Source: a virus. Taken from it: DNA of 42,997 nucleotides. The stretch spans positions 1 to 42,997 of IMG/VR virus record IMGVR_UViG_3300029260_000512; one strand, given 5' to 3'. Made by a program: the position numbers and the translations under genes. Of the stretch, positions 1 through 33,890 are shown one piece after another (position 1 is the first letter of the stretch; every line of letters starts with the position of its first letter). The notes below the pieces were generated by a model, which was not told the DNA's origin, did not search any database, and was given only the letters and a program-made list of their open reading frames with translations.

Positions 1-141
1 AGAAAAAGCGCAAGAAAACCTGAAATAACCTTCATCACTCCAGGTAAAAGTTTGGTGGCATACAGCAGCACCACCAAGATTAGAAACAGCAGAAACACCA
101 CCATGACAGCCCCCTAGCGTTATTTGTTGGCAGGTATCCAA
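1..141. repeat. Terminal overlap copy A, identical to 42857..42997 (circular assembly closure)
   Basis: Base-by-base identity of 1..141 with the last 141 bases. The repeat cuts through the 5' end of the 42301..42960 ORF and its upstream region. Confidence 0.9.
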
Positions 142-6235: not shown

Positions 6236-6237
6236 GG

Positions 6238-12340: not shown

Positions 12341-13609
12341 TCAGGTCACCGCGCCTTGCCGCCATTGGGCGTGCGGGCTGTTGTGATAAAACGACAATCT
12401 TGGTTCTGTCTCGGTCAGAAACACGTTAAAACCGCGCTCACGTAGCCACTTATGCCAGCGCTCCAACGCATCGAGAATCTGCCGCTCTGCGTACGTGTGA
12501 ATGTAAGTACGATCTAATTTTGATAGGGCGTGATTTAACAGCAGCTCACCAGCCAGATACTCCACCCCCAAATCGGCCCACGTTGTACGGGCTAGCTTAC
12601 GCAGGTCATGGGAATGCCACCGCCCACCGCTGGCAGTCACTACCAGATCAAACACGGCTGAACGGGATAGCGGCTTACCCTTCGATGCACCTGGGAACAG
12701 ATACACGCCCCGGTAACCATTGGCTTGCTGATAAGCGCGGTAACGGGTTAGCAGCGTCACGGCCATGGGCGTTAACGGCAGGCGGTGCTGTCGTTTTGAT
12801 TTTGTGTTGTCGGTGGGGATAGTCCACGTGCGCGCTTCCAGATCGAATTGAGGCCACTTAGCTAAACGCGTCTCCCCTATGCGAGTGCCAAACAGCAGCA
12901 TTAATAAAAGCAGGAAACACCCCGGCGGCTCGCACGAACGTAGGGCGCTTATCAGATCGGGCACATTGGCAGCGGTCAGCGCCCCCGCTTTAGCCGGGGT
13001 TTTCGCGTCGATGAAATCACCCACATTCACGCCCGCGAAAGGGTCAGCATCCAACAGGTTCAGCTTGCGGGCTTGCTTAAACGCGGCTTTGATCACACCA
13101 AAAATCAGGCGAACGTAAGCAACGGAATAATGCTCTTGCAGCGGCCACACCAAGCCACTGTCGATACACGCCGGGGTAATGCCCGCCAGCGGCCGGGCAC
13201 CGAACAGGGGCAGCAAGTGACGATTAACGGCGGTTTTGATCGATGATTTTCGAGTAGCGGATAAACGGCCATGGGAAGCCGAACGGTCACGATACCAACA
13301 CAGCAGGTCGGCCACGGTTTCCCAAGCATCGACGCCCACCGGCCCGGCAGGATCGAGCGCCAGCTTAGCCTCCAACTCAGGCAAGCGCGCCAGCAAAGCG
13401 CGGGTGGTCAGCTCCGGGTAATTGCCCACCCGGTGCCAGTGGCCACGCCCACCGGCATAGCGCACCACGTACCAGCTGGCACGCTCACGGGAAGCATGAA
13501 AGCGCACCCGCACCGGGTAGCGCGGGTCGCGTAACTGAGTAATTGAGGGGTCTTGAATGTGACGCTTGATAGCCGCGTCAGAAAGGGTAACAGCGAGGGT
13601 TTTAGGCAT
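12341..13609 (-). CDS. int: Tyrosine integrase (P4-like, with N-terminal arm-binding domain)
   Basis: 422 aa. C-terminal catalytic signatures (GTRIGE..., HDLRK, LNHA....TYIHTY) and an N-terminal DUF4102-like region. Confidence 0.85.
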   Translation of the reverse strand: MPKTLAVTLSDAAIKRHIQDPSITQLRDPRYPVRVRFHASRERASWYVVRYAGGRGHWHRVGNYPELTTRALLARLPELEAKLALDPAGPVGVDAWETVADLLCWYRDRSASHGRLSATRKSSIKTAVNRHLLPLFGARPLAGITPACIDSGLVWPLQEHYSVAYVRLIFGVIKAAFKQARKLNLLDADPFAGVNVGDFIDAKTPAKAGALTAANVPDLISALRSCEPPGCFLLLLMLLFGTRIGETRLAKWPQFDLEARTWTIPTDNTKSKRQHRLPLTPMAVTLLTRYRAYQQANGYRGVYLFPGASKGKPLSRSAVFDLVVTASGGRWHSHDLRKLARTTWADLGVEYLAGELLLNHALSKLDRTYIHTYAERQILDALERWHKWLRERGFNVFLTETEPRLSFYHNSPHAQWRQGAVT

Positions 13610-15129: not shown

Positions 15130-15131
15130 CG

Positions 15132-17913: not shown

Positions 17914-18546
17914 ATGCAAGAGAACATCACAGGCCAACGCCTACGCGAACTCAGAGCGCGGCGCGGTATGAAAGCCGTCGATTTAGCCAAAGCGCTAGGC
18001 ATTCAGCGCACCCGCGTAAGCAACTGGGAAACCGGCATACGCAACCCCCAGCGTGAAGAGCTGGTAAAGCTGGCCAGCGTGCTAGATGTAAGCCCCGCCT
18101 ACCTGATCGGCTGGATTAACGAAGAGATTTACTCCACCCACCAGCCCATAGAACGCAACAGCCTAACGCTCAACAACGGCGAAACCGTCACGCTAGAAAG
18201 CGCCACCAGCGCCCACGCCTATAGCGAGCAATTTCTAAACGCCCGCGACCTAAAGGCTCAGCAGCTCATGGCCCTAACGGTAGACGACGACGCCATGAAC
18301 GACGTGATATGCAAAGGCGACACCGTGCTAGTGGATATGCAGCGCAAACGCAGCGGCGGGCGCGACCTCTTCGCCATGCTAGTGAACGGCAGTATATGGG
18401 TGCGGTGGGTACGGCCTGAGCTAAACGGCACGTTTACCGTCAGCGCCGAAAACAGCACCCAATACCCCGACCAAACGCTAACCGAAAAGCAGCTAGAAGC
18501 ACTTGATATTATTGGACGAATCACACGAATAGAGCGCGACCGCTAA
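17914..18546 (+). CDS. CI-like repressor (XRE HTH plus S24 LexA-like peptidase domain)
   Basis: N-terminal HTH (LRELRARRGMKAVDLAKALGIQRTRVSNWETG). The C-terminal S24-like half contains MNDVICKGDTVLVD and a Lys downstream. Confidence 0.85.
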   Translation: MQENITGQRLRELRARRGMKAVDLAKALGIQRTRVSNWETGIRNPQREELVKLASVLDVSPAYLIGWINEEIYSTHQPIERNSLTLNNGETVTLESATSAHAYSEQFLNARDLKAQQLMALTVDDDAMNDVICKGDTVLVDMQRKRSGGRDLFAMLVNGSIWVRWVRPELNGTFTVSAENSTQYPDQTLTEKQLEALDIIGRITRIERDR

Positions 18547-20194: not shown

Positions 20195-20220
20195 ACAAAA
20201 CCGACACAGGAAGCCCCGCC

Positions 20221-21560: not shown

Positions 21561-21578
21561 CCAACAGGAACCGATGCC

Positions 21579-21952: not shown

Positions 21953-22007
21953 TATTCATCACCCTTACCCGCGACGACATCGCCAAGGCCCGCCAGGAGA
22001 GCCAGGT

Positions 22008-22427
22008 ATGAGCTACGAATCATGGCGAATCAGCTACCAATCCAGCGAACAGGCCGCGCAAGCGGCCTATGCCCAGCTGCAGGCCGTTAGCGCTGCCGCC
22101 AAGGCACTCAGCGAGGCCACCAACGAACGCGATGCCGACGACGCCCAAGAGCGTTTAGACGCCGCCATAGGTGGGCAGCTAGAAAAAGCCATCGCCCTCA
22201 ACAACCTGCACGCCGCGCAGCACGCCATGCAGCAGTACGCCGAAGCCTGCAAAACCAACCACCACCCCGGCGAAACTTTCGGTATGTCGGTATCCGGGCC
22301 AACCGGATGCGCCAGCGCTCCACACTGCCTACGGGCCGCCAGGCTGGTGTTTTTAGACGCGGCGCGTCTGATCGAACACCGCATTGAAGAAGCCAAGCAG
22401 GAAACCACCCCATGCCCACCCCGCTAA
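22008..22427 (+). CDS. Hypothetical helical protein (139 aa)
   Basis: Start MSYESWR by ATGA overlap with a 20-codon mini-ORF (21949..22011). Confidence 0.45.
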   Translation: MSYESWRISYQSSEQAAQAAYAQLQAVSAAAKALSEATNERDADDAQERLDAAIGGQLEKAIALNNLHAAQHAMQQYAEACKTNHHPGETFGMSVSGPTGCASAPHCLRAARLVFLDAARLIEHRIEEAKQETTPCPPR

Positions 22428-22543
22428 TACTACTCATCGGCCTAGCCGTTGCCGCCGTCGCCTACGCCGGGTGGCAGTGCAAGTGCGAAATAGAACAGCT
22501 CGACCAGAACGGCGACCCCATCGACCAGGACGAACAGCCATGA
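22412..22543 (+). CDS. Small single-pass membrane peptide, copy B (43 aa)
   Basis: MPTPLILLIGLAVAAVAYAGWQCKCEIEQLDQNGDPIDQDEQP. Confidence 0.5.
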   Translation: MPTPLILLIGLAVAAVAYAGWQCKCEIEQLDQNGDPIDQDEQP

Positions 22544-23016
22544 CAGGAAACAGCACACGCACCCCCATACGCCCAAGCGGCGAAGAGTGGCAAGAGCTGG
22601 TCAACATGCTGTGCCTCATGTGCCACAAAATGGGCAACTGCGACGTAATAGAAGGGATGATAGAAATGAAGCACGGCGGCGCGTGGCCATCGGGCGGTTG
22701 GGTCACTGATCCAGGCTCGGGCGCTACCTGCCTGAGCTACGAACCTCGCCCGGTTCGCCAGCTGGAAGACAGCGAGCTAACCGACGCGCTCACAAGCGCC
22801 GTGCCCATGTGCCAAGGGTGCGCAGCCCGCAAAGGTAGCGACGCCTCGCAAAGCCTGCACACCCAACGCGACTTTAACTCAGCCGTTAACCGTGGCGGAT
22901 TGTTTGTATGCCATGAAGAAGGCAACCAAGGAAAGCCCTGCGGCGGCTGGTGTCACGCCGTGAAGCGCAAACGCGCCAGCCTGATCACCACCAGCGCCAG
23001 CGAGGCCGCCCAATGA
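22540..23016 (+). CDS. Cys-rich protein (158 aa)
   Basis: CLMCHKMGNC...CQGCAARKGS...FVCHEEGNQGKPCGGWCH. Ends SASEAAQ*. Confidence 0.5.
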   Translation: MTGNSTRTPIRPSGEEWQELVNMLCLMCHKMGNCDVIEGMIEMKHGGAWPSGGWVTDPGSGATCLSYEPRPVRQLEDSELTDALTSAVPMCQGCAARKGSDASQSLHTQRDFNSAVNRGGLFVCHEEGNQGKPCGGWCHAVKRKRASLITTSASEAAQ

Positions 23017-23249
23017 TATTCATCACCCTAAGCGGCATCGCCATCGGCATCGCCGTAGTGGGCCTAGTGTTCATCCACACGCGGACCATATCGCCTCACA
23101 TCATGCGCGCCTGCCGCATCATGCACGTCATCACCCTGACGATAAGCACCGCCACCATTACCACCGCCCTCGCCCACCTGGGCGAGCCACAAGCCTGCTG
23201 GCTGGTGGTGGATCTTATGGGGGTGGCCATTGACCCCCACCCGCACTAG
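23013..23249 (+). CDS. Small membrane protein (78 aa)
   Basis: The start MIFITL is shared with the 20-codon ORF at 21949. It has hydrophobic segments. Confidence 0.45.
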   Translation: MIFITLSGIAIGIAVVGLVFIHTRTISPHIMRACRIMHVITLTISTATITTALAHLGEPQACWLVVDLMGVAIDPHPH

Positions 23250-23501
23250 CGCTACTCTCCCCCTGTCGCTGCAAAATCAGCGACCGGGTTTGGAAGCCCG
23301 AACGGATATTGGCGCACTAGCGCCCCCTTTCATCGTGTAGGCGCTATTTTTGTGCCCGCATGATGCACTATGGCGGGCCGTGCGTGGGGCGCTTCGGCGC
23401 GCCGGGTTTCCAATGTCCTCGGTCTTCCAACCCGCGTACGGTTCGCCTCCATTGTTTGGAAGCAATGTGGCGAACTCCAACAGACTTGGAGATCCACTAA
23501 A
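23250..23501 (+). ncRNA. Highly structured leader or candidate regulatory RNA upstream of the ORF6N-like gene
   Basis: At least eight hairpins. They include two with identical loops TTTGGAAG (23285..23300 and 23450..23467), an antiterminator/terminator-like alternative (23311..23324 versus 23318..23351) and an SD-sequestering stem (23476..23490). Confidence 0.4.
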
Positions 23502-24284
23502 ATGAACATCCCCACCATTTCAGTTTCTGGCGTTCAGCTACCCTATATCGAGCACCAGCAACAACCCGTCGTCACTTTCACAATGATAGACACAGCGCAT
23601 GGCCGCCCAAGCGGTACAGCAAGAAAGCGCTTTAACGACAACAAGCGCCATTTTGTTGAAGGCGAAGACTACTATCCTATTGATTCTGATAGATTGTCCG
23701 AAATTCGGACAATCTATCCAGGCCTGTTTCCCGATGCCATGAAGCGCGTCACTTTCTTCACCGAAACCGGCTACCTCATGTTGGTCAAATCGTTTACCGA
23801 CGACCTCGCTTGGCAAGTGCAGCGCCAGCTCGTCAAAAGCTATTTCCGCGTAAAAGGGGCGATGCAGCCCACCGCCGCCGAGCCCATCCCCGCGCCCATC
23901 GACCACCGCCAGCGCGAACAGCTTACCAACGCCGCTAACGCCGTGTTTCGCAATTTCGGCGGCATGCGCCAAAGCGCCACCGGCTGGTTTTACAACGGCG
24001 TACGCACCGACTACTGCCTAAAGCGCATCGAAGATCTAAGCCAAGACGACTTCCCGGCAGTGATGGACCGCCTCCAAGCCCTACGTAACAACGTGCGCCA
24101 ATACGAAGATTTCCGGCACGATATCCAGCAGTCGTTTTTTAAAGAGGTGGTAGGCGAAGGCCACCCGTACACGGCCTGGGTCAGCAAGCTAGCCGGTGGC
24201 CAACACCACATCGGTAAGCGCCCGGACTGGAAAGCGATAGCCAAACAAGTGCTAATCCACAACGGTTTACTCACCAAACAGTAA
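23502..24284 (+). CDS. ORF6N/KilA-N-like DNA-binding protein (possible antirepressor)
   Basis: The N-terminal region FFTETGYLMLVKSFTDDLAWQVQRQLVKSYF resembles ORF6N-type domains. The start is at MNIPT. Confidence 0.5.
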   Translation: MNIPTISVSGVQLPYIEHQQQPVVTFTMIDTAHGRPSGTARKRFNDNKRHFVEGEDYYPIDSDRLSEIRTIYPGLFPDAMKRVTFFTETGYLMLVKSFTDDLAWQVQRQLVKSYFRVKGAMQPTAAEPIPAPIDHRQREQLTNAANAVFRNFGGMRQSATGWFYNGVRTDYCLKRIEDLSQDDFPAVMDRLQALRNNVRQYEDFRHDIQQSFFKEVVGEGHPYTAWVSKLAGGQHHIGKRPDWKAIAKQVLIHNGLLTKQ

Positions 24285-24307
24285 GCCCACCCGCGCCAGC
24301 AAGCCCA

Positions 24308-24331
24308 AGCCCGCCACCGTGCGGGCTTTTT
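24308..24331 (+). terminator. Intrinsic terminator AGCCCGC-CACCGT-GCGGGCT-T4
   Basis: Directly after the ORF6N-like gene. Confidence 0.7.
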
Positions 24332-24346
24332 GCTGCCTGAACATTC

Positions 24347-24469
24347 AGCGTTAAATAACGCTAGCGTTATAGCGTTTTATCTTGCACCCCTAGCGGCGCT
24401 TTTCTATACTAGCGTTATTGCGTGCTAGCGTTATTTCACGCTTTGACGCCAGCGCGCAATAACGCAACG
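24347..24469 (+). promoter_or_regulatory. par promoter flanked by ATAACGC/GCGTTAT heptads (candidate operator/centromere)
   Basis: TTGCAC (24382)-17-TATACT (24405). A forward module lies at 24347..24381 and a reverse module at 24408..24442. A further ATAACGC lies at 24459..24465. Confidence 0.55.
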
Positions 24470-24488
24470 ATCAACTAAGGGGAAACCA

Positions 24489-25133
24489 ATGGGATACAAG
24501 ATAGGGGTAGTCAGCCAAAAAGGGGGCGTGAGCAAAACCACCATTAGCCGCGCCATCGCTACCACGTTTGCCGCCGATGGCTGGAATGTAAAAATTGCCG
24601 ACCTCGATATTAACCAGGCATCATCGTTTTCATGGCTGCAACGACGCCTTAGCCGCAGCATCACGCCCACCGTGGCCGTTGAGCAATTTGGCAACGTGGC
24701 CAGCGCACTCAAGATGGCCGATAACTACGACCTTATGATTTTCGACGGTGCGCCCCATGCCTCCAAGGCCACCGCCGAAGTGGCCCGCCAGTCGGATTTA
24801 ATCATTCTGCCCACCGCCACCAGCGTTGACGATTTAGAGCCGCAAGTGCGCCTAGCCAACAAGCTCACCAGTGAAGACGGCGTACCCGCTGAACGCATCG
24901 CCTTTGCGCTCAGCAAAGTAGGCAACAGCCCGCTGCAGATCAAAGAAGCCCGCAACTACCTAAGCGCCACACCCTACTTTGTGCTGAGCGGCCAAGTACC
25001 CGAAAAAACCGCGTTTATACGCGCTCAAGATACCGGGCTTTCCATCGTCGAAACCCCCTTTAAAGGCCCGCGTAAACAAGCCGAAGAGCTGATAGAAAGC
25101 ATCATCGAACGCTTTAGCCAGCTGACTCAATAA
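24489..25133 (+). CDS. parA: ParA-family partition ATPase (small, type Ib-like)
   Basis: Deviant Walker A KGGVSKTT. 214 aa. Confidence 0.85.
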   Translation: MGYKIGVVSQKGGVSKTTISRAIATTFAADGWNVKIADLDINQASSFSWLQRRLSRSITPTVAVEQFGNVASALKMADNYDLMIFDGAPHASKATAEVARQSDLIILPTATSVDDLEPQVRLANKLTSEDGVPAERIAFALSKVGNSPLQIKEARNYLSATPYFVLSGQVPEKTAFIRAQDTGLSIVETPFKGPRKQAEELIESIIERFSQLTQ

Positions 25134-25150
25134 CGAAAGGAACCGCCCAC

Positions 25151-25399
25151 ATGGTGAAGAAGATCAACATACCCAAACCCAGCAGCAAAGGTGCACCGCC
25201 CACGGTAGACGCACCCGGCCCGGTAGTAGGCAACAACACCAGTAAGCCGGAAAGCGGCGAAAAGGTGCCGCTTAATTTCCGCGTTGATCCTGAAATGCGC
25301 CGTGAATTTAAAGCCTTCGCCGTAGAGCATGACATGCAAATGGTGGACGTACTCAAGGAAGCCTGGGCGGCGTACAAGCGGGAAAAAGGGAAGGGCTAG
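25151..25399 (+). CDS. Ribbon-helix-helix partner protein (ParG/omega-like)
   Basis: 82 aa. It has a disordered basic N-terminus followed by VPLNFRVDPEMRREFKAFAVEHDMQMVDVLKEAW, a typical RHH pattern. Lies immediately downstream of parA. Confidence 0.6.
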   Translation: MVKKINIPKPSSKGAPPTVDAPGPVVGNNTSKPESGEKVPLNFRVDPEMRREFKAFAVEHDMQMVDVLKEAWAAYKREKGKG

Positions 25400-25401
25400 C
25401 C

Positions 25402-25761
25402 GTGAATAATGAGATCCAGCAGTTTGACCGCCTGATACCTAGCTATGAGCTTGCACTGTGCGCCATTGCTGAACTTATGTCGCACCACTATAAGAGCGTG
25501 CTAGAAAGCACCTCGATAGGCCCATGCGAGGGTGGCTATACCGTCGCGGTCAACTGCGAAACCGGCACTGACACGGTGGGCTTCACCCTGCAGGAAGCGC
25601 CGTACAAAAGCTATCAGGAAGCGCTAAGCGCCTTTGGCGCGATGCTAGACGACATTACCGCCCGCTACGAAGGCCGGGCATCATGGAAAGATGAGGAGTG
25701 GTGGGACCAGCACCACGAAGACCTCAAAGCCCGCTACGGCTTTGAGCTGGTGAGCTTCTGA
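25402..25761 (+). CDS. Hypothetical protein
   Basis: 119 aa with a GTG start. The start is uncertain. Confidence 0.4.
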   Translation: MNNEIQQFDRLIPSYELALCAIAELMSHHYKSVLESTSIGPCEGGYTVAVNCETGTDTVGFTLQEAPYKSYQEALSAFGAMLDDITARYEGRASWKDEEWWDQHHEDLKARYGFELVSF

Positions 25762-25846
25762 AAGTGAGCCACACTAAAACGCCCACCCGGTGGCTAGACC
25801 GGGCGGGCGTTACGCAACGACATAATACCAATGGGGATTAGCTATC

Positions 25847-26002
25847 ATGTCAGCAACAGAATATACCACGATTGCACGCACACCGTTAAACCAGCTGCAT
25901 ACGCTGCCGCTGCACCTGCTGTGCGCCTACCTATACCAATGCCCAGCCATCAGCCGCCGTGCGCTAGAACGCATCGTGCGTATCCATGAGGAGGTCGTAT
26001 GA
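25847..26002 (+). CDS. Small protein (51 aa), not in the ORF track
   Basis: MSATEYTTIARTPLNQ... Its stop overlaps the next ATG (ATGA). Confidence 0.35.
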   Translation: MSATEYTTIARTPLNQLHTLPLHLLCAYLYQCPAISRRALERIVRIHEEVV

Positions 26003-26298
26003 TTAATTACTTCCAAGACAACCCAATGGAGGCGCTAACGCGCCTCATTAAAGCGGCCCAAGGAGACAGCCACCAAAGCCACCACGTGCGTCGATTCCTG
26101 CTTGGTTTGTACAACGCTGAAGAATGGCCCTTTGAAATGAATCGCCTCAGGGCGCTGGATCGTCAGCTGCAAATGGCCTGCTTTCGGGTGTTAGAGCTTG
26201 ATGTCGTGACATGTGAGCGTGATATACACGAGTACCTGGAAAATGGCGGCACTATTTTTCAGCAATTCTGGCAGCAGGAAAGCGCCAGCAGTGATTGA
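25999..26298 (+). CDS. Hypothetical protein
   Basis: 99 aa. RBS GAGGAG. Followed by a strong terminator. Confidence 0.5.
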   Translation: MINYFQDNPMEALTRLIKAAQGDSHQSHHVRRFLLGLYNAEEWPFEMNRLRALDRQLQMACFRVLELDVVTCERDIHEYLENGGTIFQQFWQQESASSD

Positions 26299-26316
26299 CC
26301 TTTTAGCGGCAAGCAA

Positions 26317-26345
26317 TAGCCCGGCCAATGAGCCGGGCTATTTTT
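26317..26345 (+). terminator. Intrinsic terminator TAGCCCGGC-CAATGA-GCCGGGCTA-T5
   Basis: A 9-bp stem plus a T-run after 25999..26298. Confidence 0.8.
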
Positions 26346-26359
26346 ATGTCTGAGCAACG

Positions 26360-26451
26360 AAAAAGCCCCAATCCGGGCAGACTGGGGCTTTATGTGTATG
26401 AGGCATTGGCGTGCCTTCATACAAAGGTAAAAACCTATCGATAAAGCTAAC
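26360..26451 (-). ncRNA. Candidate ~90-nt small RNA with a CGCCAA loop
   Basis: Minus-strand promoter TTGATC (26485..26480)-16-TAATTT (26463..26458). An 11-bp stem-loop at 26395..26423 has loop CGCCAA on the minus strand (TTGGCG on the plus). The terminator is AAGCCCCA...TGGGGCTT-U5 (26390..26360). Confidence 0.35.
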
Positions 26452-26564
26452 AAGAAAAAATTAACACAATGAGCGGCAGGATCAAGCCTGTTTCCTCCTC
26501 GCATGTAATCAGGTTAATGACCTGACTAAGCAGCGGGCCGCGATTGATAACGGTATATAAAATT

Positions 26565-26588
26565 AAAAACCCCACCGGTAAGGCGGGG
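26565..26588 (-). terminator. Intrinsic terminator after the GNAT toxin gene
   Basis: The minus strand reads CCCCGCC-UUACC-GGUGGGG-U5. Confidence 0.65.
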
Positions 26589-26597
26589 TAGGTTTTG

Positions 26598-27110
26598 CTA
26601 TCGCAACGATTTAACCAGTGTCAGCTCATCGCTGGGCAAAGGCTTAAAACCGTATCGCTTATAAAAATCCACCGCATCAGGCAACGCGTTTATCATCAGG
26701 GCCACAGACCCCACTAAACGCGACTGATCGGCTGCAGTTTGCCAAGCAGCCAGTAGCAAACGGCAACCGACCCCCTTGCCTTTTAGTCGGCTATCGACGG
26801 CTAAACGCCCTAACGTGGTCACTGGAACGCTTCGGGGCATGTTCTTTTTTAACTTGCCCATCATTTTTTCGCGGTCCACTGCACCAGATGCAAGCGCAAA
26901 ATATCCTAGCACTAGCTTTGTGCCTGGGGCGCACACTACATAGACCGTAGTAGCACCACTTTGATGGTTGCCTAACGCTTCACTGGCTAAAAACTTATTT
27001 AGCGTGAACACGCCACAATCGAAGTGGCTTAGGTCGTGCTGAGGCGTTAAGAGCTCTGGGGCTGCGACGACGCCCAAATCGGTGTTTTGTTGAGAAGTTT
27101 CTGAAAGCAT
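26598..27110 (-). CDS. GNAT acetyltransferase toxin (TacT/KacT-like)
   Basis: 170 aa. HDLSHFDCG motif and acetyl-CoA site LKGKGVG. RBS GGAGGA. Paired with a DUF1778-type antitoxin. Confidence 0.8.
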   Translation of the reverse strand: MLSETSQQNTDLGVVAAPELLTPQHDLSHFDCGVFTLNKFLASEALGNHQSGATTVYVVCAPGTKLVLGYFALASGAVDREKMMGKLKKNMPRSVPVTTLGRLAVDSRLKGKGVGCRLLLAAWQTAADQSRLVGSVALMINALPDAVDFYKRYGFKPLPSDELTLVKSLR

Positions 27111-27355
27111 GGGTCCTCCGATGCTGGCTGTTTAATAGCCTCTTCGAAGAACGCGTAGTCGGTTTCATTCAGCATGTAGAATCGTCGGTTCAGCAGTACC
27201 TCTTCGGCTTTTCGACATGCGGCTTCCACCACGAAACTGGTTCGATCCCCCCCCAGCTCCGCTACGGCTCTATCGATCAAGGCGCGTTTTTTAGGGTCAA
27301 CACGCATATTGAGGGCCAGTGGCTTAGCCACTGCCTCAGCAGCTGTGCTTTTCAT
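27047..27355 (-). CDS. DUF1778 RHH antitoxin (TacA/KacA-like)
   Basis: LNMRVDPKKRALIDRAVAELGGDRTSFVVEAACRKAEEVLL is the classic DUF1778 pattern. The ORF overlaps the toxin start by 64 nt. Confidence 0.8.
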   Translation of the reverse strand: MKSTAAEAVAKPLALNMRVDPKKRALIDRAVAELGGDRTSFVVEAACRKAEEVLLNRRFYMLNETDYAFFEEAIKQPASEDPCFQKLLNKTPIWASSQPQSS

Positions 27356-27434
27356 GATGTATGTCCTATCGCTGTTTAAGGGTGTTTCGCTCCTTAGCCT
27401 TGCTCAGCAGCTTGTTGCTGCCTGCAAGGCGCGT

Positions 27435-27476
27435 TTAGTTTATGGGTTCTGTTGTGCCTTTGGTTGGGTTGGCCAT
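27435..27476 (-). CDS. 13-codon mini-ORF with a strong Shine-Dalgarno (possible leader peptide)
   Basis: AAGGAGATAACAC-ATG, translating as MANPTKGTTEPIN. It is followed by a ~12-bp hairpin, about 80 nt upstream of the antitoxin start. Confidence 0.2.
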   Translation of the reverse strand: MANPTKGTTEPIN

Positions 27477-27763
27477 GTGTTATCTCCTTGGTTTTTTAGT
27501 GATGGTTTTGCTTTTTTTGCTTTTTGCCTGTGTTGGTTGCCACGACATATAGCGCAATACATGCGGCAACAATTTCAGTATAACATATTATGTAGCTCAA
27601 ACCTACACAATGTAGCACAGAGCGTTACGTTGCTTTAGGTATTCCCTAAGCGCCCACTGGTGGCCCGCCTGATCAATCAGGCGTTTTAGCCAAAACCCCA
27701 CCCAAAACACCCACCTGCTAAACTGCCCACCCAAAACGCCCACAACACCGCCAGGGGGAACGC

Positions 27764-28411
27764 ATGTACGTCAGGGGATACCTACGCGCCAGCACGGCAG
27801 AACAGAACGCCCAGCGGGCACGCAGTACGCTAGAACACTTCGCCGCTGAACATCGCCGTGAGGTAGTGAGCTGGTATATCGAGAATGTGAGCGGCGCTAG
27901 CAGCCAGCGCCCAGAACTCAGGAGGCTTCTGGAAGATGCCAAGCAAGGTGATGTGCTGCTGATAGAATCGGTAGACCGCCTTTCCCGCCTGGGGGCGGCA
28001 GAGTGGCGGCACCTGCGGGGGCAGATTGAGGCGCTAGGGTTACGGGTGGTGTCGCTGGACCTTCCCACTAGCTACGCAGCCATGGCCATGCCCACCCAAG
28101 GCGAGGATTTTACCGCCCGCATGCTCGATGCGCTGAATACCATGATGCTAGACGTACTCGCAGCGGTAGCCCGCAAAGACTACGACGACCGGCGAACGCG
28201 CCAGCGCCAGGGGATAGAGCAAGCAAAGAAGGAAGGCAAATACCAGGGCAAGCGGCCCAACAAGGCACTACACCAGCGAATTGAAGCGCTATTGAACGCC
28301 CGCGACGGTGAAGGCAAACCGTTCACCACGGCGCGCATTTGCGAACTAGCCGGGTGCGGTGAAACCACTGTGAAAAAGGTAAAGCGGGCTATGCGCGAAA
28401 AGGCACACTAA
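27764..28411 (+). CDS. Serine recombinase (resolvase/invertase family)
   Basis: N-terminal YLRASTAEQ catalytic Ser motif, SVDRLSR, and a C-terminal HTH. Confidence 0.85.
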   Translation: MYVRGYLRASTAEQNAQRARSTLEHFAAEHRREVVSWYIENVSGASSQRPELRRLLEDAKQGDVLLIESVDRLSRLGAAEWRHLRGQIEALGLRVVSLDLPTSYAAMAMPTQGEDFTARMLDALNTMMLDVLAAVARKDYDDRRTRQRQGIEQAKKEGKYQGKRPNKALHQRIEALLNARDGEGKPFTTARICELAGCGETTVKKVKRAMREKAH

Positions 28412-28689
28412 GCGCCACGTGAACGCCGCTTTCTTACCCGGCCTTGCAGCCGTTCCCACCATTCGCCGGGTAGCCAGATCGACACCCAGCGCAATAGCAA
28501 TTCAGCCCGGCGTGTGTCCGGGTAATCGTCGGGGTAGTGGGTAAAGTCGCTGGCCAGCGCCAGCAGTTGGTCCTTGCCTTGCTGTTGCACGGCATGGTGG
28601 GCGGGATCAAACGCGGCATCCAGCAGCACGGCCAACCACGTGGCCACTTCATCGGCGTTCATTTTGCGGGGGCGGGGCATGGCGGGCAC
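28408..28689 (-). CDS. Hypothetical protein
   Basis: 93 aa, convergent with the resolvase gene. Confidence 0.35.
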   Translation of the reverse strand: MPAMPRPRKMNADEVATWLAVLLDAAFDPAHHAVQQQGKDQLLALASDFTHYPDDYPDTRRAELLLRWVSIWLPGEWWERLQGRVRKRRSRGA

Positions 28690-28724
28690 CTATTAGCGTG
28701 ACATATTCCCCACTACAGCAGCCG

Positions 28725-29009
28725 CTAATCGCCCCGGAAATTGTTTTTCAGTATCCAGTTATCCGGCGTGCCGGTGTTTTGACGCCGGGCGTGGGCCGCT
28801 GCCTGCTGTGATCGGGTGCGGGCAATCACGCGAATGGCCAAGCGATCTAACCGGCGGCTGCCTGGGTGTTGCACATAGCCCACCTCGCCACACGCAGCGC
28901 AGGGGAACCGATGAAACATGCCGTGCGTAAAGCCGTGGCCGTTGCAGTGTTTGCAAGTGGTGGCCTGCAACTGCGCAAGGGTGCGGGGGAGTGATGGCGG
29001 TAACGTCAT
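28725..29009 (-). CDS. DnaJ-type zinc-finger-like small protein
   Basis: Two CxxCxGxG motifs (CKHCNGHG and CAACGEVG). Confidence 0.45.
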   Translation of the reverse strand: MTLPPSLPRTLAQLQATTCKHCNGHGFTHGMFHRFPCAACGEVGYVQHPGSRRLDRLAIRVIARTRSQQAAAHARRQNTGTPDNWILKNNFRGD

Positions 29010-29239
29010 GCGGTTAGTTTACCGGGGGTTGTGGGTTATGTCGCGCTAGCGACATGCAAGCCGCCCACTGAACTATAAGCAGGCATTATAGGTGCGCGGC
29101 GAACGGGCGTTAGCCCGCCCAACTATGCGGAACCCCTTGCCACTGCTAAACGGGGTTTGGGGTGGTTTTTAGCGGGGTCCAGGGGTGCAACCCCTGGGAC
29201 AACCAGCCCGGCAGGGCTGGGCGTCAGTGTAGAGCGGTT

Positions 29240-29450
29240 CTGCGCTTGCGCAGGCATTTAAAGCCCTTGACCTTGTGCCCTTAAAAGAGCATCCGCGCTT
29301 GCGCGGGCATTGTGGATAAACCCCACGCTAGTGGGGGTTAGCTGAACCTATTTAACTACATAAGAGAAGCATATTAACGGTGTACAGCTAATTTATTCTC
29401 ATATTACCTAATTCTATTTCTAAATCACTTAATTTTACATCTTTAAAGGG
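29240..29450. other. Candidate plasmid-type replication origin
   Basis: Two 19-bp palindrome-containing repeats C(T/C)GCGCTTGCGC(A/G)GGCATT lie at 29240 and 29293. A perfect DnaA box TGTGGATAA (complement of TTATCCACA) lies at 29311..29319. An AT-rich stretch at 29341..29450 carries internal repeats. The region lies downstream of repA, as in IncFII oriR. Confidence 0.5.
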
Positions 29451-29631
29451 GAGTCGAATCATCGGCGGGGGTTGGGCTTTTCGGGGGTGGTGTTTGGCTT
29501 AGATCGGGGAGATTTTGCGCCAGCGCGGCGCTAAAACGGGCGGGGAAATGGGGCAGGGCTACCGATTAGCCACGGGCTTAGCGCCCGGCGTGGGGCGCTG
29601 CGTGGCGTTCTGGGGTGGGGTTGGCGGCGGG

Positions 29632-30696
29632 CTAGTGTCGTCGCTGCCGGTCTAAATGCTCTTCCCATGGCGGGTACTTAATGCGCGCCAGCTGGCGTAT
29701 CTCGGCATAGCTCGCGCCGGGGTTGTTGTCGGAAACCTCTTTAATGTACGCGATCATAGCGAGGTTATAGCGGCGCTGAGCCTCGGCGCTCTCGTCAACG
29801 TCGGGTAGATCGGCCTTGCCCCGGCGCTGCTTCTGCATCGCTTTCGGGCCGCTGCCTGCCATCGCTAGGCGGCTGCGTGCTTCGGCGGCGTCGTGCGCCT
29901 TGGGGAACTGCTCGCGGTGCTTACGGCGGGCTTTCTTAATGCGGTTGCTGCACCAGTCGCGGAACTCCTTAAATTTCTGGTAGCCCACACGCCCCAGCGC
30001 CAGCAGAAAATCCGGGTTGAGTAGCTTCACAGCAGGCCGGGCGCGCTTCGTACCGTCGACTTTCACCTCATGCTGCAAATGCACCGTAAACGCGCCAGCG
30101 AGCTTTAAGCGCCGGAAGGCGCGCCAAAAGCGTTGGCTAGGCTCGGGGGCTTCTGGGGTGCTGCCGGGTGCCAGCAGGCCCGCCACGCGGGCAATTTCCG
30201 CACAGCTACGGTGTTTAAAACCACCATCCGCTAGTGGGGTGCCCACGCGCAAACTGGCGAACTCGGTAAACTGAATGATGGCAGAAAGCACCAGCGACTC
30301 AGCAGCGCGGGCCTCAGATCGGTTACAGCGGGGGTTGCCATCGGCGTTGGCCTTGCCGTTCAGGTTGGCCAGCGTGGGCAATAGGCCGGGGCTGGTGTAG
30401 TAGGCTTTGGCACCGTCTACCAGCGCTTGCAGTGTGGCGGGTAGCCGCCCCTTTTTAACGGGCTGGCAATAGCGCTCAAACTCGCCTTTAGCGGGGTTAT
30501 GCCCGCACCGGTTACCGGTGCCCCACCACTTGCCGTGGTGTTCGTATGGCACGCGCCCCCACGTGAGGGGCTGCGCGTTCTCTGCTGCAGCATCCATTTG
30601 CAAAATCTCGCTTGAGACTTGCCCGCGCCTTGTGCAGCAGTTAAACTCTGGGGAGTCGGTTTTGGTTCCCAGTCGTTTGTTCTGCTGCCAAAACAT
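29632..30696 (-). CDS. repA: Plasmid replication initiator (IncFII RepA-like)
   Basis: 354 aa. The central region (ESLVLSAIIQFTEFASLRVG...SCAEIARVAGL...RFWRAFRRLKLAGAFTV) and the basic C-terminal part resemble the IncFII RepA family as I recall it. The adjacent origin-like region and antisense-control hairpin support the call. Confidence 0.6.
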   Translation of the reverse strand: MFWQQNKRLGTKTDSPEFNCCTRRGQVSSEILQMDAAAENAQPLTWGRVPYEHHGKWWGTGNRCGHNPAKGEFERYCQPVKKGRLPATLQALVDGAKAYYTSPGLLPTLANLNGKANADGNPRCNRSEARAAESLVLSAIIQFTEFASLRVGTPLADGGFKHRSCAEIARVAGLLAPGSTPEAPEPSQRFWRAFRRLKLAGAFTVHLQHEVKVDGTKRARPAVKLLNPDFLLALGRVGYQKFKEFRDWCSNRIKKARRKHREQFPKAHDAAEARSRLAMAGSGPKAMQKQRRGKADLPDVDESAEAQRRYNLAMIAYIKEVSDNNPGASYAEIRQLARIKYPPWEEHLDRQRRH

Positions 30697-30732
30697 CCGA
30701 GAAGCCCCAGCGCCAACTGGGGCTTTTCTTTT
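30654..30732 (+). ncRNA. Candidate antisense copy-control RNA (CopA/Inc-like)
   Basis: Plus-strand promoter TTGCCC (30619)-17-TAAACT (30642). The terminator-like hairpin AAGCCCCAG-CGCCAA-CTGGGGCTT is followed by TTTTCTTTT (30702..30732). The RNA would be antisense to the repA start region. Confidence 0.4.
30702..30725 (-). promoter_or_regulatory. repA leader stem-loop with a 5'-UUGGCG-3' loop
   Basis: A 9-bp stem. On the repA mRNA strand the loop reads UUGGCG, and the structure ends 5 nt before the annotated ATG. Confidence 0.6.
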
Positions 30733-30889
30733 GGGTGTCTATCTAGTTAATTTGTAAGCGTTTTCTATTTCTGGCTTAGCGCCGCCCGGCGCTAAGCATC
30801 GCGTCACTGAGTGCTAATCCTAACACCCACGCCACTTTTTGCCACTATTTGTGAACAAAAAATTTAACTGCTGTCTGCCTGTCCAGCGG

Positions 30890-31123
30890 TTAATGCGGCT
30901 TGACCTCTTCCTCGTCATCGCTTTTTTTAGCGGCCTCTGCCAGCTCATGCCCCAACGCACCGCGAATAAACGCGATGTTGGTACTAAGCCCTTGGTGCAT
31001 CCCCTCGCACGTTAACGCCAAATACTCTAAGTGCTCCAAACAGTTAGCCAGCGTTTCCTCTGCACTCACGCCCACCAGCGGGTTTGCTTGATAGCCTTGC
31101 GTCGTTCCCTGCTGCTCGCTCAT
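30890..31123 (-). CDS. Small acidic protein in the CopB position upstream of repA
   Basis: The start MSEQQG is preceded by GGAGG. 77 aa. A LexA box lies upstream. Confidence 0.5.
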   Translation of the reverse strand: MSEQQGTTQGYQANPLVGVSAEETLANCLEHLEYLALTCEGMHQGLSTNIAFIRGALGHELAEAAKKSDDEEEVKPH

Positions 31124-31163
31124 TGTGTCGCCTCCCCGGTGCGCGTTTGCGCACACCTAAAAA

Positions 31164-31179
31164 CTGTTTATACATACAG
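31164..31179. promoter_or_regulatory. LexA (SOS) box CTGTTTATACATACAG
   Basis: A perfect CTGT-N8-ACAG with an AT-rich core. It lies 41-56 nt upstream of the 31123 start, abuts a TATGAT -10-like hexamer on the minus strand and itself contains a TATAAA. Confidence 0.65.
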
Positions 31180-31534
31180 CATCATACTACACCGCATGAC
31201 GCTATTGGAAAATTGCTAAGCGGGTTTATGCGCTTGGCCGTGATCCTACTGGGCACCGCCGCTTACCCGAAATAACGCTCAACCCAGCACACCTCTATAA
31301 AAACACGGCGCACGCGCAGGGCAAGAATCCGAGCGACTTCTATGCAGAATGGGCCGCTATCGTTTCGCCTACCCCTTTATTAAAACACGCATTCTCAAAG
31401 CGCAACCTAAAACCAAACTGATGAATTTATTCATAATCTTAGGCGCAAACAGCAGACGCTTAGGCAACATATAAGCGACACTTACCAGCAACGGCAATCA
31501 CCGCCCCGGCACCCACCTGGGCATTTTTCACGCA

Positions 31535-31583: not shown

Positions 31584-32165
31584 TTATACCTCCCAGCTCA
31601 GCTCCTCGATGCTGTCGATCTCGCCCGCTTGCAGCTGCGCGGCGTATCGCCCCTCTAGCGCGATCAGCGCGCTGCGCCGGTAGCCAATTTGCTCGTATGC
31701 CGCTTGCACATCGGAAACCGGGTGGTCATCGTGAAACACCCCATCCGAGTCTTTCCATCCCGTGAATGTCGTCATGTTTGCAGCGGCGGCGAATTGTAGG
31801 GATTCGTTGAGGGCTTGGCGGTTGTCGGGGTCACCTGCGTACCGAATGCCGTTGATCGTCACGCCCTGTGCTTCGGCGGCTTTGCGCTGCGGCTCGATCA
31901 GCGCGGCCAGCTCAGCCCGGCGGCGTTGCTCTTTCGCTTGCTCATCCGCTAGTAACTCGACGCTCCGCAGCTTTTGCCCACCGCTGCCAGGGTAGACCGG
32001 GCGTGGCTCACCGGGCTTCTGAACGCCCGCCCACAGTCCGGCGGGGGTAGCGTAAGCGTGAACGATGGTATCAACGGCTAACGCAGGCAGCGGGATTTGC
32101 TGCCCATCGTGCTCAAGGGCGCGCCCGTCAGGCGTAGTGACAATCTGCAAATTCGACATCGGCAA
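31584..32165 (-). CDS. DUF4376-like protein (tail fibre assembly/chaperone-like)
   Basis: The C-terminal half (INGIRYAGDPDNRQALNESL...WKDSDGVFHD...VSDVQAAYEQIGYRRSALIALEGRY) resembles the DUF4376 pattern. It is the last gene of the late operon. Confidence 0.5.
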   Translation of the reverse strand: MPMSNLQIVTTPDGRALEHDGQQIPLPALAVDTIVHAYATPAGLWAGVQKPGEPRPVYPGSGGQKLRSVELLADEQAKEQRRRAELAALIEPQRKAAEAQGVTINGIRYAGDPDNRQALNESLQFAAAANMTTFTGWKDSDGVFHDDHPVSDVQAAYEQIGYRRSALIALEGRYAAQLQAGEIDSIEELSWEV

Positions 32166-33201
32166 AATCTCTCTTCAGAGTGAGTTGGTCCACTAGGTGG
32201 TTAACGGTATTCCAGCTATCGCAGTGCTTGGCGTAAGCCAGGAAGGCGTGTAGATGTTGCTGCACTTCGTCCAGGCTGGCATCACCTCTGGTATAACGGC
32301 GCTGCAGAATTTTCAGGCGGCGTTTAAAGCGCTGAATGTTGCGCTTGCGGGGCAGTATGTGGGTGGCCCATATGCGGTAGCCGCACCAATCCACGCCCGC
32401 GCTGGCAGGGCGTACTTGGGTTTTAGGGTTGAGTGATAGACCGCGCCGCTCTAGCGCCGCTTGCAGCTGGTGTAGCCGCTGCCAGGCTTCGGCTTTGCTT
32501 GGGCAAACGATCACTATGTCATCCATATAGCGCACGTATTGCCCTGCGCCGTGGTCGTCGGTCATCTCGTGATCGACGCCATCTAGGGTGGCGTTAGCGT
32601 TTAGCTGACTGCTAAGCGCGCCAACCGGTTGTCCGATGCCGTCATCATGGCCATAGCCGCGTATCATGGCGCGCCACAGTTGCAGTGTATCTGGGCAGTC
32701 AATCGTCTGAGAAATACTGTCTAGTACGGCATCATGGGGCAGCGAGTCGAAAAACTTGCTTACGTCTGCCTGTACGACGTACACACTATCCCAGCGCCGC
32801 TTAGCCTTTCTGAGCATGCGTTGCAGAGCAAGCACCCCTGCTTGGGTACCCTTTCCCTTGCGACAGGCGTAGCTGTGATAGATAAACCTGCGCTCAAATA
32901 GTGGTTCTACCAAGTCCACCACGGCGTGATGCAGCACCCGATCTTTAAACGGTGGGGCTTGAATCATCCGCATTTTAGGCTCCAGCACCACAAACTCTCT
33001 GGCGCGGCCCGGCTGCCATGTTTTGTGAACCAAGTGGTTGTGAAGGTTTAGGAGGTTTTCTTCCAGGTTGGCGGTGTATTTCACCACCTCTGGCCGGTAG
33101 CGCTTGCGCTTTCTGGCGGCATGATAGCCGCGCATGAGGTTATCGAAATCAATAATGTCTTGATAAAGCGACACCGCATTGTCCTTATGCAGTTCGTGCA
33201 A
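32128..33201 (-). CDS. DGR reverse transcriptase
   Basis: 357 aa. YMDD catalytic box (VRYMDDIVIV). PVGALSSQLNAN matches the DGR-specific (I/L/V)GxxxSQ motif. Lies immediately downstream of the TR. Confidence 0.9.
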   Translation of the reverse strand: MHELHKDNAVSLYQDIIDFDNLMRGYHAARKRKRYRPEVVKYTANLEENLLNLHNHLVHKTWQPGRAREFVVLEPKMRMIQAPPFKDRVLHHAVVDLVEPLFERRFIYHSYACRKGKGTQAGVLALQRMLRKAKRRWDSVYVVQADVSKFFDSLPHDAVLDSISQTIDCPDTLQLWRAMIRGYGHDDGIGQPVGALSSQLNANATLDGVDHEMTDDHGAGQYVRYMDDIVIVCPSKAEAWQRLHQLQAALERRGLSLNPKTQVRPASAGVDWCGYRIWATHILPRKRNIQRFKRRLKILQRRYTRGDASLDEVQQHLHAFLAYAKHCDSWNTVNHLVDQLTLKRDFADVEFADCHYA

Positions 33202-33333
33202 AATGAAACGCGGCCACCCGTAGGCCGCCGCGCTCTATTGATGTTTCGCCGTGAAGCGAGGAAAGCCGCCCCGAGGGATGTGGCACTGCCCGCCAACCCG
33301 TAGGCGGGCGGTTTCTGGCCGGTAAAGCGGTCG

Positions 33334-33444
33334 CTCGCGAGACGCGCCCCGATGTTGCTGTTCGAGTTCGACGCCGAATTGTTGCAGTTCACGTACCAAA
33401 GCCCGGCATTCGCGCCATTGCTCCAGTTGCCGCCGACGTAGGGG
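33334..33444 (-). repeat. DGR template repeat (TR)
   Basis: 111 bp, aligned without gaps to 33900..34010. It carries 24 coding-strand adenines. It would encode nine AAC (Asn) codons in the frame that corresponds to the VR reading frame. Confidence 0.9.
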
Positions 33445-33476
33445 CACATCGAAATAAGCGACTTCCCTTTCTTGCT

Positions 33477-33890
33477 CTACTTGCTGTTACTTTGCTTGCT
33501 GCGCTCGTGGCGCAGCCAGCCACCTAATATGGAGCCAAGGTCATTGATGTGCTGCGCCCAATCACGATATTGGCCGCCGGAAATATAGCCGTAGCGCTGC
33601 GCTTTTCGCACCTTGCGGCGTAGTATCTCTATCTCAATATCCAAGTCGGTGAGGGTGGTTTTCTTCTGATAGCGCTTCCAGGCAGTGAGCGTGATCCGCT
33701 CGATACGCTCAATACACAGCCGCACCTCCGCGCTGAGCAAGTGTCGCTCACTTTTCGGAAAATTCACCAGGGCTCGACGACTGTAATCTTCCAGCTCTTC
33801 CACCTTAGTGAGCATGCCCTCAAAGGGTCGAAGGTGTTGGTACGGGGCGCTACCGCGCCCCTGAGCTTGACGCTGATTTGCCTGACTCAT
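33477..33890 (-). CDS. avd: DGR accessory variability determinant (Avd-like four-helix-bundle protein)
   Basis: 137 aa and basic. Its ATG overlaps the target gene stop (ATGA). It sits between VR and TR, as in the Bordetella phage BPP-1 DGR. Confidence 0.8.
   Translation of the reverse strand: MSQANQRQAQGRGSAPYQHLRPFEGMLTKVEELEDYSRRALVNFPKSERHLLSAEVRLCIERIERITLTAWKRYQKKTTLTDLDIEIEILRRKVRKAQRYGYISGGQYRDWAQHINDLGSILGGWLRHERSKQSNSK
33844..33861 (-). promoter_or_regulatory. GC hairpin downstream of the VR (candidate DGR target-recognition cruciform)
   Basis: GGGGCGC-(4 nt)-GCGCCCC, a 7-bp stem with a 4-nt loop. It lies 38 nt 3' of the VR end, within avd. Confidence 0.5.

Follow-up and report, generated by a model that had tools for sequence, protein, structure and literature searches.

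A lambda-like phage genome with a plasmid-type replicon and a P4-related recombinase: a probable phage-plasmid

How is a prophage maintained when its genome carries both a plasmid-like replication and partition block and a gene for an integrase-like recombinase? The question is raised by a viral DNA of 42,997 nucleotides, IMG/VR record IMGVR_UViG_3300029260_000512, the whole of which is termed here the window. A sequence-only reading described in it a contiguous block (24308-31200) with a ParA and a small partner, a toxin-antitoxin (TA) pair, a serine resolvase and a replication initiator, as well as a P4-type integrase gene elsewhere, and proposed that the element carries signals for both an episomal and an integrated state. 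The analysis presented here makes it likely that the window represents a lambda-like cos siphophage by its complete circular genome, and that the prophage of this phage is kept as a low-copy circular plasmid and is not integrated. The host is probably of the Halomonas type. The phage-plasmid reading is supported by a plasmid Rep family, a conserved origin, a centromere-like array, a circular plasmid relative and the phage size of the contigs on which relatives are found.

The first 141 bp of the window are repeated exactly at its end, as found by comparison of the window ends (1-141 = 42857-42997), and because of this overlap the window is taken to be a circular assembly with a unit of 42,856 bp. 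A colinear relative is NZ_CP080628.1, a circular record of 45,853 bp ('plasmid unnamed') that belongs to the closed Halomonas qaidamensis XH36 genome and is referred to below as L001. The two share 73-83% DNA identity over common modules, the Rep and recombinase proteins are 84% and 82% identical, respectively, and the origin, the partition array and the position of a diversity-generating retroelement (DGR) are as in the window. L001 differs in that it is without the DUF7673, TA and resolvase insert of the window, has another immunity region and another tail-fibre/DGR target, and carries additional genes, e.g. for a WYL-domain protein. Its annotation lists terminase, portal, protease, decoration and capsid proteins, gpW, holin and lysozyme, and Nu1 and GpA terminase genes are present in relatives. 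By colinearity with L001, together with the S24 repressor, the temperate-phage gene set of the window (packaging, head, tail, lysis and repressor) is complete. Whole-genome comparison with L001 places parA and its partner gene, rep with the origin, and the recombinase gene in the core. Rep, ParA, the ParA partner and the recombinase are under purifying selection, with ratios of nonsynonymous to synonymous substitution (dN/dS) of 0.09-0.20.

Close relatives of Rep are found on contigs of phage size. Among the close relatives in species-representative genomes, 15 of 15 have contigs no longer than 42.7 kb. Seven of these 15 come from cultured isolates (Salinicola, Kushneria, Aeromonas and Pseudomonas), whose contigs measure 36.5-42.7 kb, and large contigs in these species-representative genomes carry only distant Rep matches that are confined to the N-terminal domain. 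Among 120 protein clusters of Rep homologs no contig exceeds ~110 kb, and the IMG/VR contigs with Rep relatives cluster at 36.5-44.6 kb. Among the relatives examined, none of the close ones was found in an integrated form.

Two of the related records merit separate mention. Pseudomonas phage PARCL1pr (MZ496292.1, 39.6 kb, circular) displays at 3642-6369 the same arrangement of Rep, gap and ParA as the window. The ParA-like ATPase of this phage carries the annotation 'bchL, protochlorophyllide reductase', almost certainly in error, and the record is probably another phage-plasmid; the literature yielded nothing specific on PARCL1pr or on vB_Alvi_H905. The other relative, termed L003 (contig JBLXBX010000028.1 of GCA_048265265.1, 44,530 bp), begins within the reverse transcriptase (RT) gene. 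Several draft genomes may have contig breaks near the DGR repeats, and such breaks would be in keeping with circular elements broken at a repeat.

The initiator was originally read as a 354-amino acid (aa) open reading frame (ORF). This ORF is present at 29632-30696, but a homolog search returned 124 clusters, nearly all of 316-325 aa, that align from Met34. Because of this alignment, the rep gene is most likely 29632-30597 and its product 321 aa in length. At the nucleotide level, tblastn of Rep finds 177 plasmid records, 61 of them with full-length matches, including pAsa5, pAsa6 and pAsa9 of Aeromonas salmonicida. The usual annotation of these matches is 'plasmid replication protein repA', and in many of the records the numbering places the gene at bases 4-951. 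The window Rep and the RepA of the Aeromonas plasmids are 41.6-42.4% identical over 96-99% of the query (E ~1e-72 to 1e-74 by tblastn). A GNRCGH motif is invariant in the Rep family, which also has a central winged-helix-like segment, and both the GNRCGH and the winged helix-turn-helix (wHTH) motifs are kept between the window Rep and the pAsa-type RepA family. The central winged helix is visible in the AF2 model of Rep (predicted local distance difference test, pLDDT, 86; predicted template modelling score, pTM, 0.81). Rep has a dN/dS of 0.19.

The case of pAsa6 is instructive. This plasmid is 18.5 kb in length with 15 genes, and the Rep homolog, typed as rep_cluster_1169 by MOB-suite, is its only plausible rep gene. 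The corresponding locus of pAsa5 and pAsa9 has been called 'replication-associated repBA genes' (PMC5508783). By full-length homology, the window Rep is assigned to the RepA of the pAsa5/pAsa6/pAsa9 replicon type. A small ORF upstream of rep is also common to the window and these plasmids, and pAsa6 has in addition an AT-rich trough 150-210 nt 3' of the rep stop codon and a ParA-like ATPase nearby. The pAsa plasmids differ in that they are virulence or conjugative plasmids without phage genes.

Profile libraries do not recognize the window Rep and its close relatives. Neither the window protein nor 36 relatives have a Pfam or NCBIfam match, even at E<=10, and the only PHROG matched by Rep is one of unknown function. 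A Foldseek search of BFVD gave one unnamed homolog. Rep-family homology had been put forward from the sequence as decisive for the initiator, and it comes from the plasmid RepA proteins of the pAsa5 type, not from Pfam or NCBIfam models. An exhaustive profile search recruited 829 cluster representatives to the family. In the metagenome-assembled genome CBDALO01 (Gammaproteobacteria), a distant homolog of the N-terminal domain of Rep (~29-30% identity, residues 27-227) is present in at least 14 copies, which are distributed among many contigs, some of them 130-384 kb in length. This suggests that a different multi-copy mobile element uses the Rep N-terminal domain in that organism.

The sequence-only reading likened the initiator to the RepA of IncFII plasmids. 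Homology to plasmid RepA stands, but membership in the IncFII family was rejected: none of 36 family members matches PF02387 at E<=10, whereas genuine R100 RepA1, used as positive control, matches at 1.1e-24. Comparison by hhalign of the close-family Rep profile with R100 RepA1 gives a probability of 1.2%. The distant members of the family are nearer to IncFII. Matches to NCBIfam NF040977 (RepA_IncFII_LM) were found for 44 of 97, with a best E of 2.6e-9 and every score far short of the 70-bit cut-off, and to PF02387 for two of 97. The matches of the distant members are colinear with the region of the window family profile, and therefore the IncFII link does not hop between domains. The distant-member profile reaches 50% probability against R100 RepA1, and a combined profile headed by the window Rep reaches 61% (E 7.9e-5, 137 columns), with Rep residues 49-214 aligned to RepA1 residues 24-170. 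It is plausible from these profile alignments that Rep is a remote, transitive relative of IncFII RepA, though not a member of the family.

In plasmid R1, the replication region consists of CopB, the CopA antisense RNA, RepA and a downstream oriR with a DnaA box and an AT-rich region. The window has a similar layout, in which a small ORF is followed by a structured leader, by rep and then by the origin, and its origin also has a DnaA box and an AT-rich region with no tandem iteron array. It differs from IncFII in that Rep and its close relatives do not match PF02387 or NF040977, and from R1 in the order of the DnaA box and AT tract relative to rep. As equivalents of the antisense RNA and CopB controls of IncFII, the small ORF and the structured leader of the window are candidates only.

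The proposed origin-like region is confirmed downstream of rep; it occupies the ~620 bp of non-coding DNA at 29010-29631 and not the whole of 29.0-31.2 kb. Two 20-nt repeats (29239-29258 and 29292-29311), 53 nt apart, each contain a 10-bp palindrome, GCGCTTGCGC. Adjoining the second is a perfect DnaA box (29311-29319), which is the only perfect match in the window, and this is followed by an AT-rich trough at ~29340-29450 with a GC content of 25% vs the background of 59%. At the DNA level, the origin region of three elements has a mean column identity of 91%, with a near-invariant core, compared with ~80% for the flanking genes. The trough is found 150-210 nt past the rep stop codon in 20 of 20 family members tested, which reach down to 37% protein identity and include pAsa6 and pK533-strA (~42%). 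A perfect or one-mismatch DnaA box is beside the trough in most of the closer relatives; pAsa6 and pK533-strA, unlike the window, have no perfect DnaA box adjoining it. No tandem iterons were found in the origin region of the window, and G-rich 11-mers there, with six copies vs a shuffle maximum of five, are marginal. Past the origin are two small conserved ORFs, and ORFs syntenic with this pair follow Rep and the origin in L001, L003 and a further relative, L004. The 94-aa ORF has a CxxC zinc-ribbon-like motif and matches phrog_5085.

On the other side of rep, the 148-nt leader is predicted to fold with -56.1 kcal/mol (z = -4.7), and none of 200 shuffled sequences is as stable. Its first hairpin (30699-30728) is invariant, being kept in L001 and L003, and reads as a terminator with a T-run on the + strand. 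Such a terminator would suit a countertranscript; an antisense promoter for a countertranscript was not identified in the leader. The ~77-aa ORF further upstream, a candidate RepB or copy-number regulator, is weakly conserved at this position, with 24-47% identity, in L001, L003, L004, PARCL1pr and one Aeromonas phage-plasmid, and pAsa9 has an 80-aa ORF at the matching position.

Does the phage have another means of replication? No phage-type initiator, helicase loader or helicase is recognizable in the early operon by Pfam, PHROGs or fold search, as had been noted from the sequence. In integrated prophages with a homologous recombinase, HTH_36, DnaC-like or DnaB genes are present in the early-operon slot. 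In the window, the 'O position' of lambda, after cro and a PAPS-reductase-like gene, is taken by a gene for a conserved 188-aa protein with only 13 detectable homologs. The model of this protein (pLDDT 66) has a confident N-terminal winged helix. As a hidden phage initiator it was rejected, in that the N-terminal domain matches only wHTH regulators of the ArsR/SmtB class, and other early proteins gave no informative matches in the search for a hidden initiator. The 188-aa protein nevertheless stays a candidate, as discussed below.

Both genes of the proposed partition pair are present. ParA, with a KGGVSKTT motif, matches CbiA (9e-12), NF041546 ParA_partition (2.5e-29, below the cut-off) and phrog_164 (4e-36). 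It is common to L001 and other relatives and has a dN/dS of 0.20. From its sequence it is classed as a small Walker-type ParA of the Type Ib kind, without an N-terminal helix-turn-helix (HTH), and as a core gene. The 82-aa partner is kept beside parA in relatives (dN/dS 0.085) and matches phrog_6024 at 1e-12. Its proposed ribbon-helix-helix (RHH) fold is suggested by sub-threshold matches (RHH_10 7.7e-4, PrgO 4.5e-4). Directly upstream of parA is a dense array of the heptamer GCGTTAT and its inverse, which is kept in L001 at 19940-20060. The heptamer has 25 copies in the window vs 6.2+-2.4 expected, a fourfold excess, and none of 100 shuffled sequences reaches 25. It is a candidate for a dispersed operator or centromere motif. 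Besides the parA sites (24355-24465), there are intergenic clusters at 13672-13702, 13853, 13959, 14527-14592, 20170-20192 and 21520-21558, which are conserved at syntenic L001 sites. The CI/Cro intergenic region has no GCGTTAT heptamer.

Between the partition genes and the origin is an insert whose GC content falls to 0.50. The TA pair and the resolvase that were read from the sequence are both there: the GNAT and TacA genes are adjacent and co-oriented on the - strand, the arrangement of a TacT/TacA-type pair, with DUF1778 in the antitoxin. A resolvase is found at the corresponding position in Salinicola elements. The TA pair and resolvase are accessory, and ParA, Rep and the origin are core.

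The arrangement suggests the following scheme of maintenance. RepA would bind the palindromic repeats in the origin just past its own gene and, with host DnaA at the adjoining DnaA box, would open the AT-rich tract for theta replication. Synthesis of RepA would probably be controlled through the small upstream ORF and the structured leader. The Type Ib ParA and its 82-aa partner may segregate the copies through the heptamer array upstream of parA. In the window genome specifically, the acquired TacT/TacA-type pair would add post-segregational killing and the serine resolvase would resolve multimers. The S24 CI-like repressor would hold lysogeny, modulated perhaps by a C4 antisense RNA of the P1 type and an antirepressor. 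The P4-related recombinase would be dispensable for the episomal lifestyle and may serve in multimer resolution, occasional integration or another role. We infer DNA binding, origin firing, partition and the episomal state in the phage's own host from sequence.

Phage-plasmids are a known and common class (PMC7969092), and another one is therefore not surprising. The window resembles P1, N15, SSU5 and the heterogeneous VP882 community, which includes Halomonas elements, in combining a temperate phage with the replication, partition and addiction functions of a plasmid. It differs from these in its lambda-like cos head and packaging genes on a circular replicon with no protelomerase, and in a Rep from another family. 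With P1 it shares an immunity with C4 antisense RNA and antirepressor and the retention of a recombinase, as P1 retains Cre; it departs from P1 in having an S24 CI-type repressor instead of C1 and a recombinase that is P4-related and not Cre-like. Mildly unusual are the retention of an integrase-like gene in the core and the size of a Rep family without a curated model.

The wider significance is in the Rep family. The analysis links a large family (829 cluster representatives, with no Pfam model and no structural relative) to plasmids pAsa5, pAsa6 and pAsa9, and ties the same family to a lineage of lambda-like phage-plasmids that extends over marine and halophilic Gammaproteobacteria. Rep is a marker that current tools for replicon typing and for the detection of phage-plasmids overlook; the record from H. 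qaidamensis, for one, is without a replicon type. The repB-repA-ori fragment of ~2.5 kb is also a compact candidate replicon for vectors in Halomonas, an industrial chassis.

Several points weigh against maintenance as a plasmid. A circular assembly by itself does not point to a plasmid, since cos-phage DNA that is being replicated or has been packaged can also give one, and the H. qaidamensis record could be an induced phage that was assembled as a separate circle. Sequence and profile searches of the PDB with Rep found no characterised initiator, and a whole-chain Foldseek search of the PDB gave nothing below E 0.1 (the best, at 0.11, were generic wHTH proteins). For replication by the pAsa5-type RepA, the literature holds annotation but no functional assay that we found. 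The 188-aa winged-helix protein could be an unrecognised phage initiator or lytic-origin binder. Finally, phage-plasmids have been said to 'typically lack integrases', and a P4-related recombinase that is intact and under selection, with an N-terminus like an arm domain, is the gene expected of an integrating phage.

The recombinase is consequently the gene on which the alternatives turn. Its gene closes the early genes and is followed by the lysis and late genes. Residues R243, K270, H334, R337, H360 and Y369 of the catalytic set are invariant, and dN/dS against L001 is 0.11. The protein scores 54 bits against NCBIfam NF007246, where the cut-off is 434, and has no Pfam match to Arm-DNA-bind_3 (PF13356) at E<=0.01. 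A 'not P4-type' label, which had been based on the missing Pfam arm domain, was dropped when hhalign matched the protein to a genuine P4-type integrase with a probability of 98.1% over 315 columns. The match begins at residue 49 of the P4-type integrase, which is the end of its arm domain. By this remote homology and its intact R-K-H-R-H-Y set, the recombinase is judged a diverged relative of the P4-family integrases (Arm-DNA-bind_3 + Phage_int_M + Phage_integrase). The P4 likeness suggested at the outset is therefore upheld as remote homology, without a Pfam-detected arm domain. The window recombinase also differs from the P4 family in that no tRNA-derived attP was found and in that its homologs are interior, and not at the edge, of integrated relatives.

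A search for attachment sites was negative. The window has no tRNA or tmRNA gene (ARAGORN), there is no tRNA-like Rfam match in 11800-14200 at E<=10, and no attP-like core was found beside the recombinase gene. The attP-like region that had been described next to the gene was thus not recovered. No lox- or dif-like inverted repeat with arms of at least 9 nt is conserved beside the gene across eight loci.

Homologs of the recombinase with at least 50% identity are found on the phage-sized contigs that carry Rep, and none is on a contig larger than 43 kb. Chromosomal homologs (~45% identity) are interior in four elements (L083, L084, L085 and L086). In three chromosomal prophages (P. protegens and Vibrio), the homolog is situated between early and lysis genes and is flanked on both sides by 10 kb or more of phage DNA. 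The fourth element is a P4-like island of P. guineae (L086) with the homolog inside and a separate, PF13356-bearing P4-type integrase at its edge; this island also has a Toprim/DUF927 primase. In the circularised unit of the window, phage genes likewise run uninterrupted around the recombinase gene. Synteny extends from Halomonas to Vibrio parahaemolyticus and comprises the repressor, cro, early genes, DUF1064, recombinase, lysis genes and Nu1/GpA terminase. The slot is constant in plasmid prophages (Halomonas, Salinicola, Vibrio and Pseudomonas) and in integrated prophages alike, and an integrase-like gene that is kept in the interior suggests a function other than integration.

The region between the recombinase gene and the lysis genes (12119-12260, - strand) has a sigma-70-like promoter, TTGCAT-N17-TATCGT, followed by a transcribed stretch of ~100 nt and, at 12119-12146, by a strong intrinsic terminator. 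The promoter-terminator pair is conserved in L001, L087 and L088. This late-control layout resembles PR'-tR' of lambda, with the recombinase gene at the 'Q position'. No Q-family protein was identified among the ORFs scanned (12341-31156).

Perhaps, then, the recombinase is not an integrase but an enzyme dedicated to multimer resolution or cyclisation, with a function like that of Cre or ResD, or else a regulator tied to the early-to-late switch. Its fixed place directly upstream of the conserved promoter-terminator pair and the lysis genes, the interior position of homologs in integrated prophages and its status as a core gene of an episomal lineage all favour such a role. The serine resolvase is only accessory, so that a core resolution function would otherwise be missing. 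Against it are the failure to find a lox- or dif-like inverted repeat beside the gene, a multi-domain build that is that of heterobivalent integrases and not of Cre or Xer, and the lack of a known precedent for a regulatory role, none having turned up in the literature searched; nothing specific was found in the literature on the roles of such recombinases in phage-plasmids. We consider this a real possibility, though one that we do not favour. A role other than integration, which the sequence-only reading had offered as an alternative, is at least as likely as integration.

A dual lifestyle, in which the phage is normally a plasmid prophage and can integrate and excise by means of the P4-related recombinase, as suggested for some phage-plasmids such as P88, seems unlikely. 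The enzyme is catalytically intact and under purifying selection, its homology to a P4-type integrase covers the arm-domain end and the core-binding and catalytic domains, direct heptamer repeats are found upstream of its gene, and the literature allows for recombinases that alternate between the two states (PMC7969092). The heptamers, however, are not specific to the recombinase locus, and an element that integrates with this enzyme is not what the attachment-site search, the contig sizes of the homologs at 50% identity or more, or the interior homologs of the four chromosomal elements, one of them with its own edge integrase, indicate. The integrated-state signals first proposed are not supported by these observations, nor by any integrated close relative. 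Quite doubtful, too, is a phage-internal function apart from integration that would consist of resolving DNA topology before packaging or of controlling the early-to-late switch.

That the phage is an ordinary integrative prophage, with Rep and origin as its lytic replication module, ParA otherwise employed and the circles being induced or packaged DNA, is very improbable: the recombinase is present, the record is metagenomic and phage DNA can assemble as a circle, and N-terminal-domain homologs of Rep do occur in deposited Aeromonas phages, but isolates of four genera carry the element as a separate 36-43 kb contig and never inside a chromosomal contig, a relative is entered as a circular plasmid in a closed genome, the Rep homolog is the replicon of the non-phage plasmids pAsa6 and pAsa9, and the partition operon and centromere-like array are core and under selection. 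Maintenance as a circular plasmid is accordingly preferred. The features on which it is based, and those of the neighbouring regions, are listed in Table 1.

Table 1. Positions of the features discussed, numbered along the window, with the basis for each
Feature	Position	Strand	Basis
Terminal direct repeat	1..141, copy 42857-42997	.	exact overlap; colinearity with circular record NZ_CP080628.1
Tyrosine recombinase, 422 aa, last early gene before lysis and late genes	12341..13609	-	PF00589 8.8e-15
188-aa early protein at lambda 'O position', after cro and PAPS-reductase-like gene	16088-16654	-	synteny, model
cro-like ORF, divergent from repressor	17514-17735	-	ORF; divergent arrangement kept in relatives
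CI-like repressor, HTH and S24 autopeptidase	17914..18546	+	HTH_3 6e-16, Peptidase_S24 3e-12
P1/P7-type immI-like element: a1/b1 targets 23252-23304, C4 antisense RNA 23366-23453	23252..23453	+	Rfam
ORF6N antirepressor, downstream of C4	23502..24284 (listed ORF 23370-24284)	+	PF10543 1.4e-11, phrog_4608 1.6e-39
GCGTTAT/ATAACGC heptamer array, direct and inverted; candidate centromere/operator	24345..24470	.	directly upstream of parA
ParA, 214 aa, KGGVSKTT motif	24489..25133	+	CbiA, NF041546, phrog_164
ParA partner, 82 aa, putative RHH centromere-binding protein	25151..25399	+	phrog_6024
Accessory insert	25975..28410	.	no counterpart in L001 (blastn)
DUF7673	25999-26298	+	Pfam
GNAT toxin	26598-27110	-	Acetyltransf_10 3e-9
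TacA/DUF1778 antitoxin	27047-27355	-	PF08681 (TacA1) 1.1e-18
Serine recombinase (resolvase)	27764-28411	+	PF00239 5e-25
Two small conserved ORFs past origin, 93 aa and 94 aa	28408..29009	-	ORF list, synteny
Origin-like region, non-coding, ~620 bp	29010..29631	.	repeats, DnaA box, AT trough, conservation
RepA, 321 aa from Met34	29632..30597	-	homology to pAsa5/pAsa6/pAsa9 RepA
Structured rep leader, 148 nt	30598..30745	-	RNA folding
Small ORF preceding rep, ~77 aa; candidate RepB or regulator of copy number	30890..31123	-	positional conservation
DGR RT, YMDD	32128-33201	-	ORF
Avd-like ORF	33081-33449	-	ORF
DGR template repeat (TR)	33334-33444	-	repeat pair
DGR variable repeat (VR), 3' end of 664-aa tail gene (33887-35881)	33900-34010	-	repeat pair

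The immunity functions of the phage are of two kinds. The CI/Cro-like switch that had been noted is present as an S24/HTH repressor with a divergent cro-like ORF. A P1/P7-type immunity element coexists with this CI-type repressor. Its Rfam scores are 68.1 bits for RF03163 and 64.4 bits for RF01695, both above gathering, and an overlapping isrK match scores 56.6 bits. The antirepressor of this element has its likely start near 23502, within the longer listed ORF, and the L001 homolog is 260 aa in length.

A DGR adjoins the plasmid block at 31584-35881 on the - strand. Its TR and VR form a 111-nt pair that is 86% identical, and the core mismatches are at TR adenines, 13 of them A>T, five A>G and two A>C.

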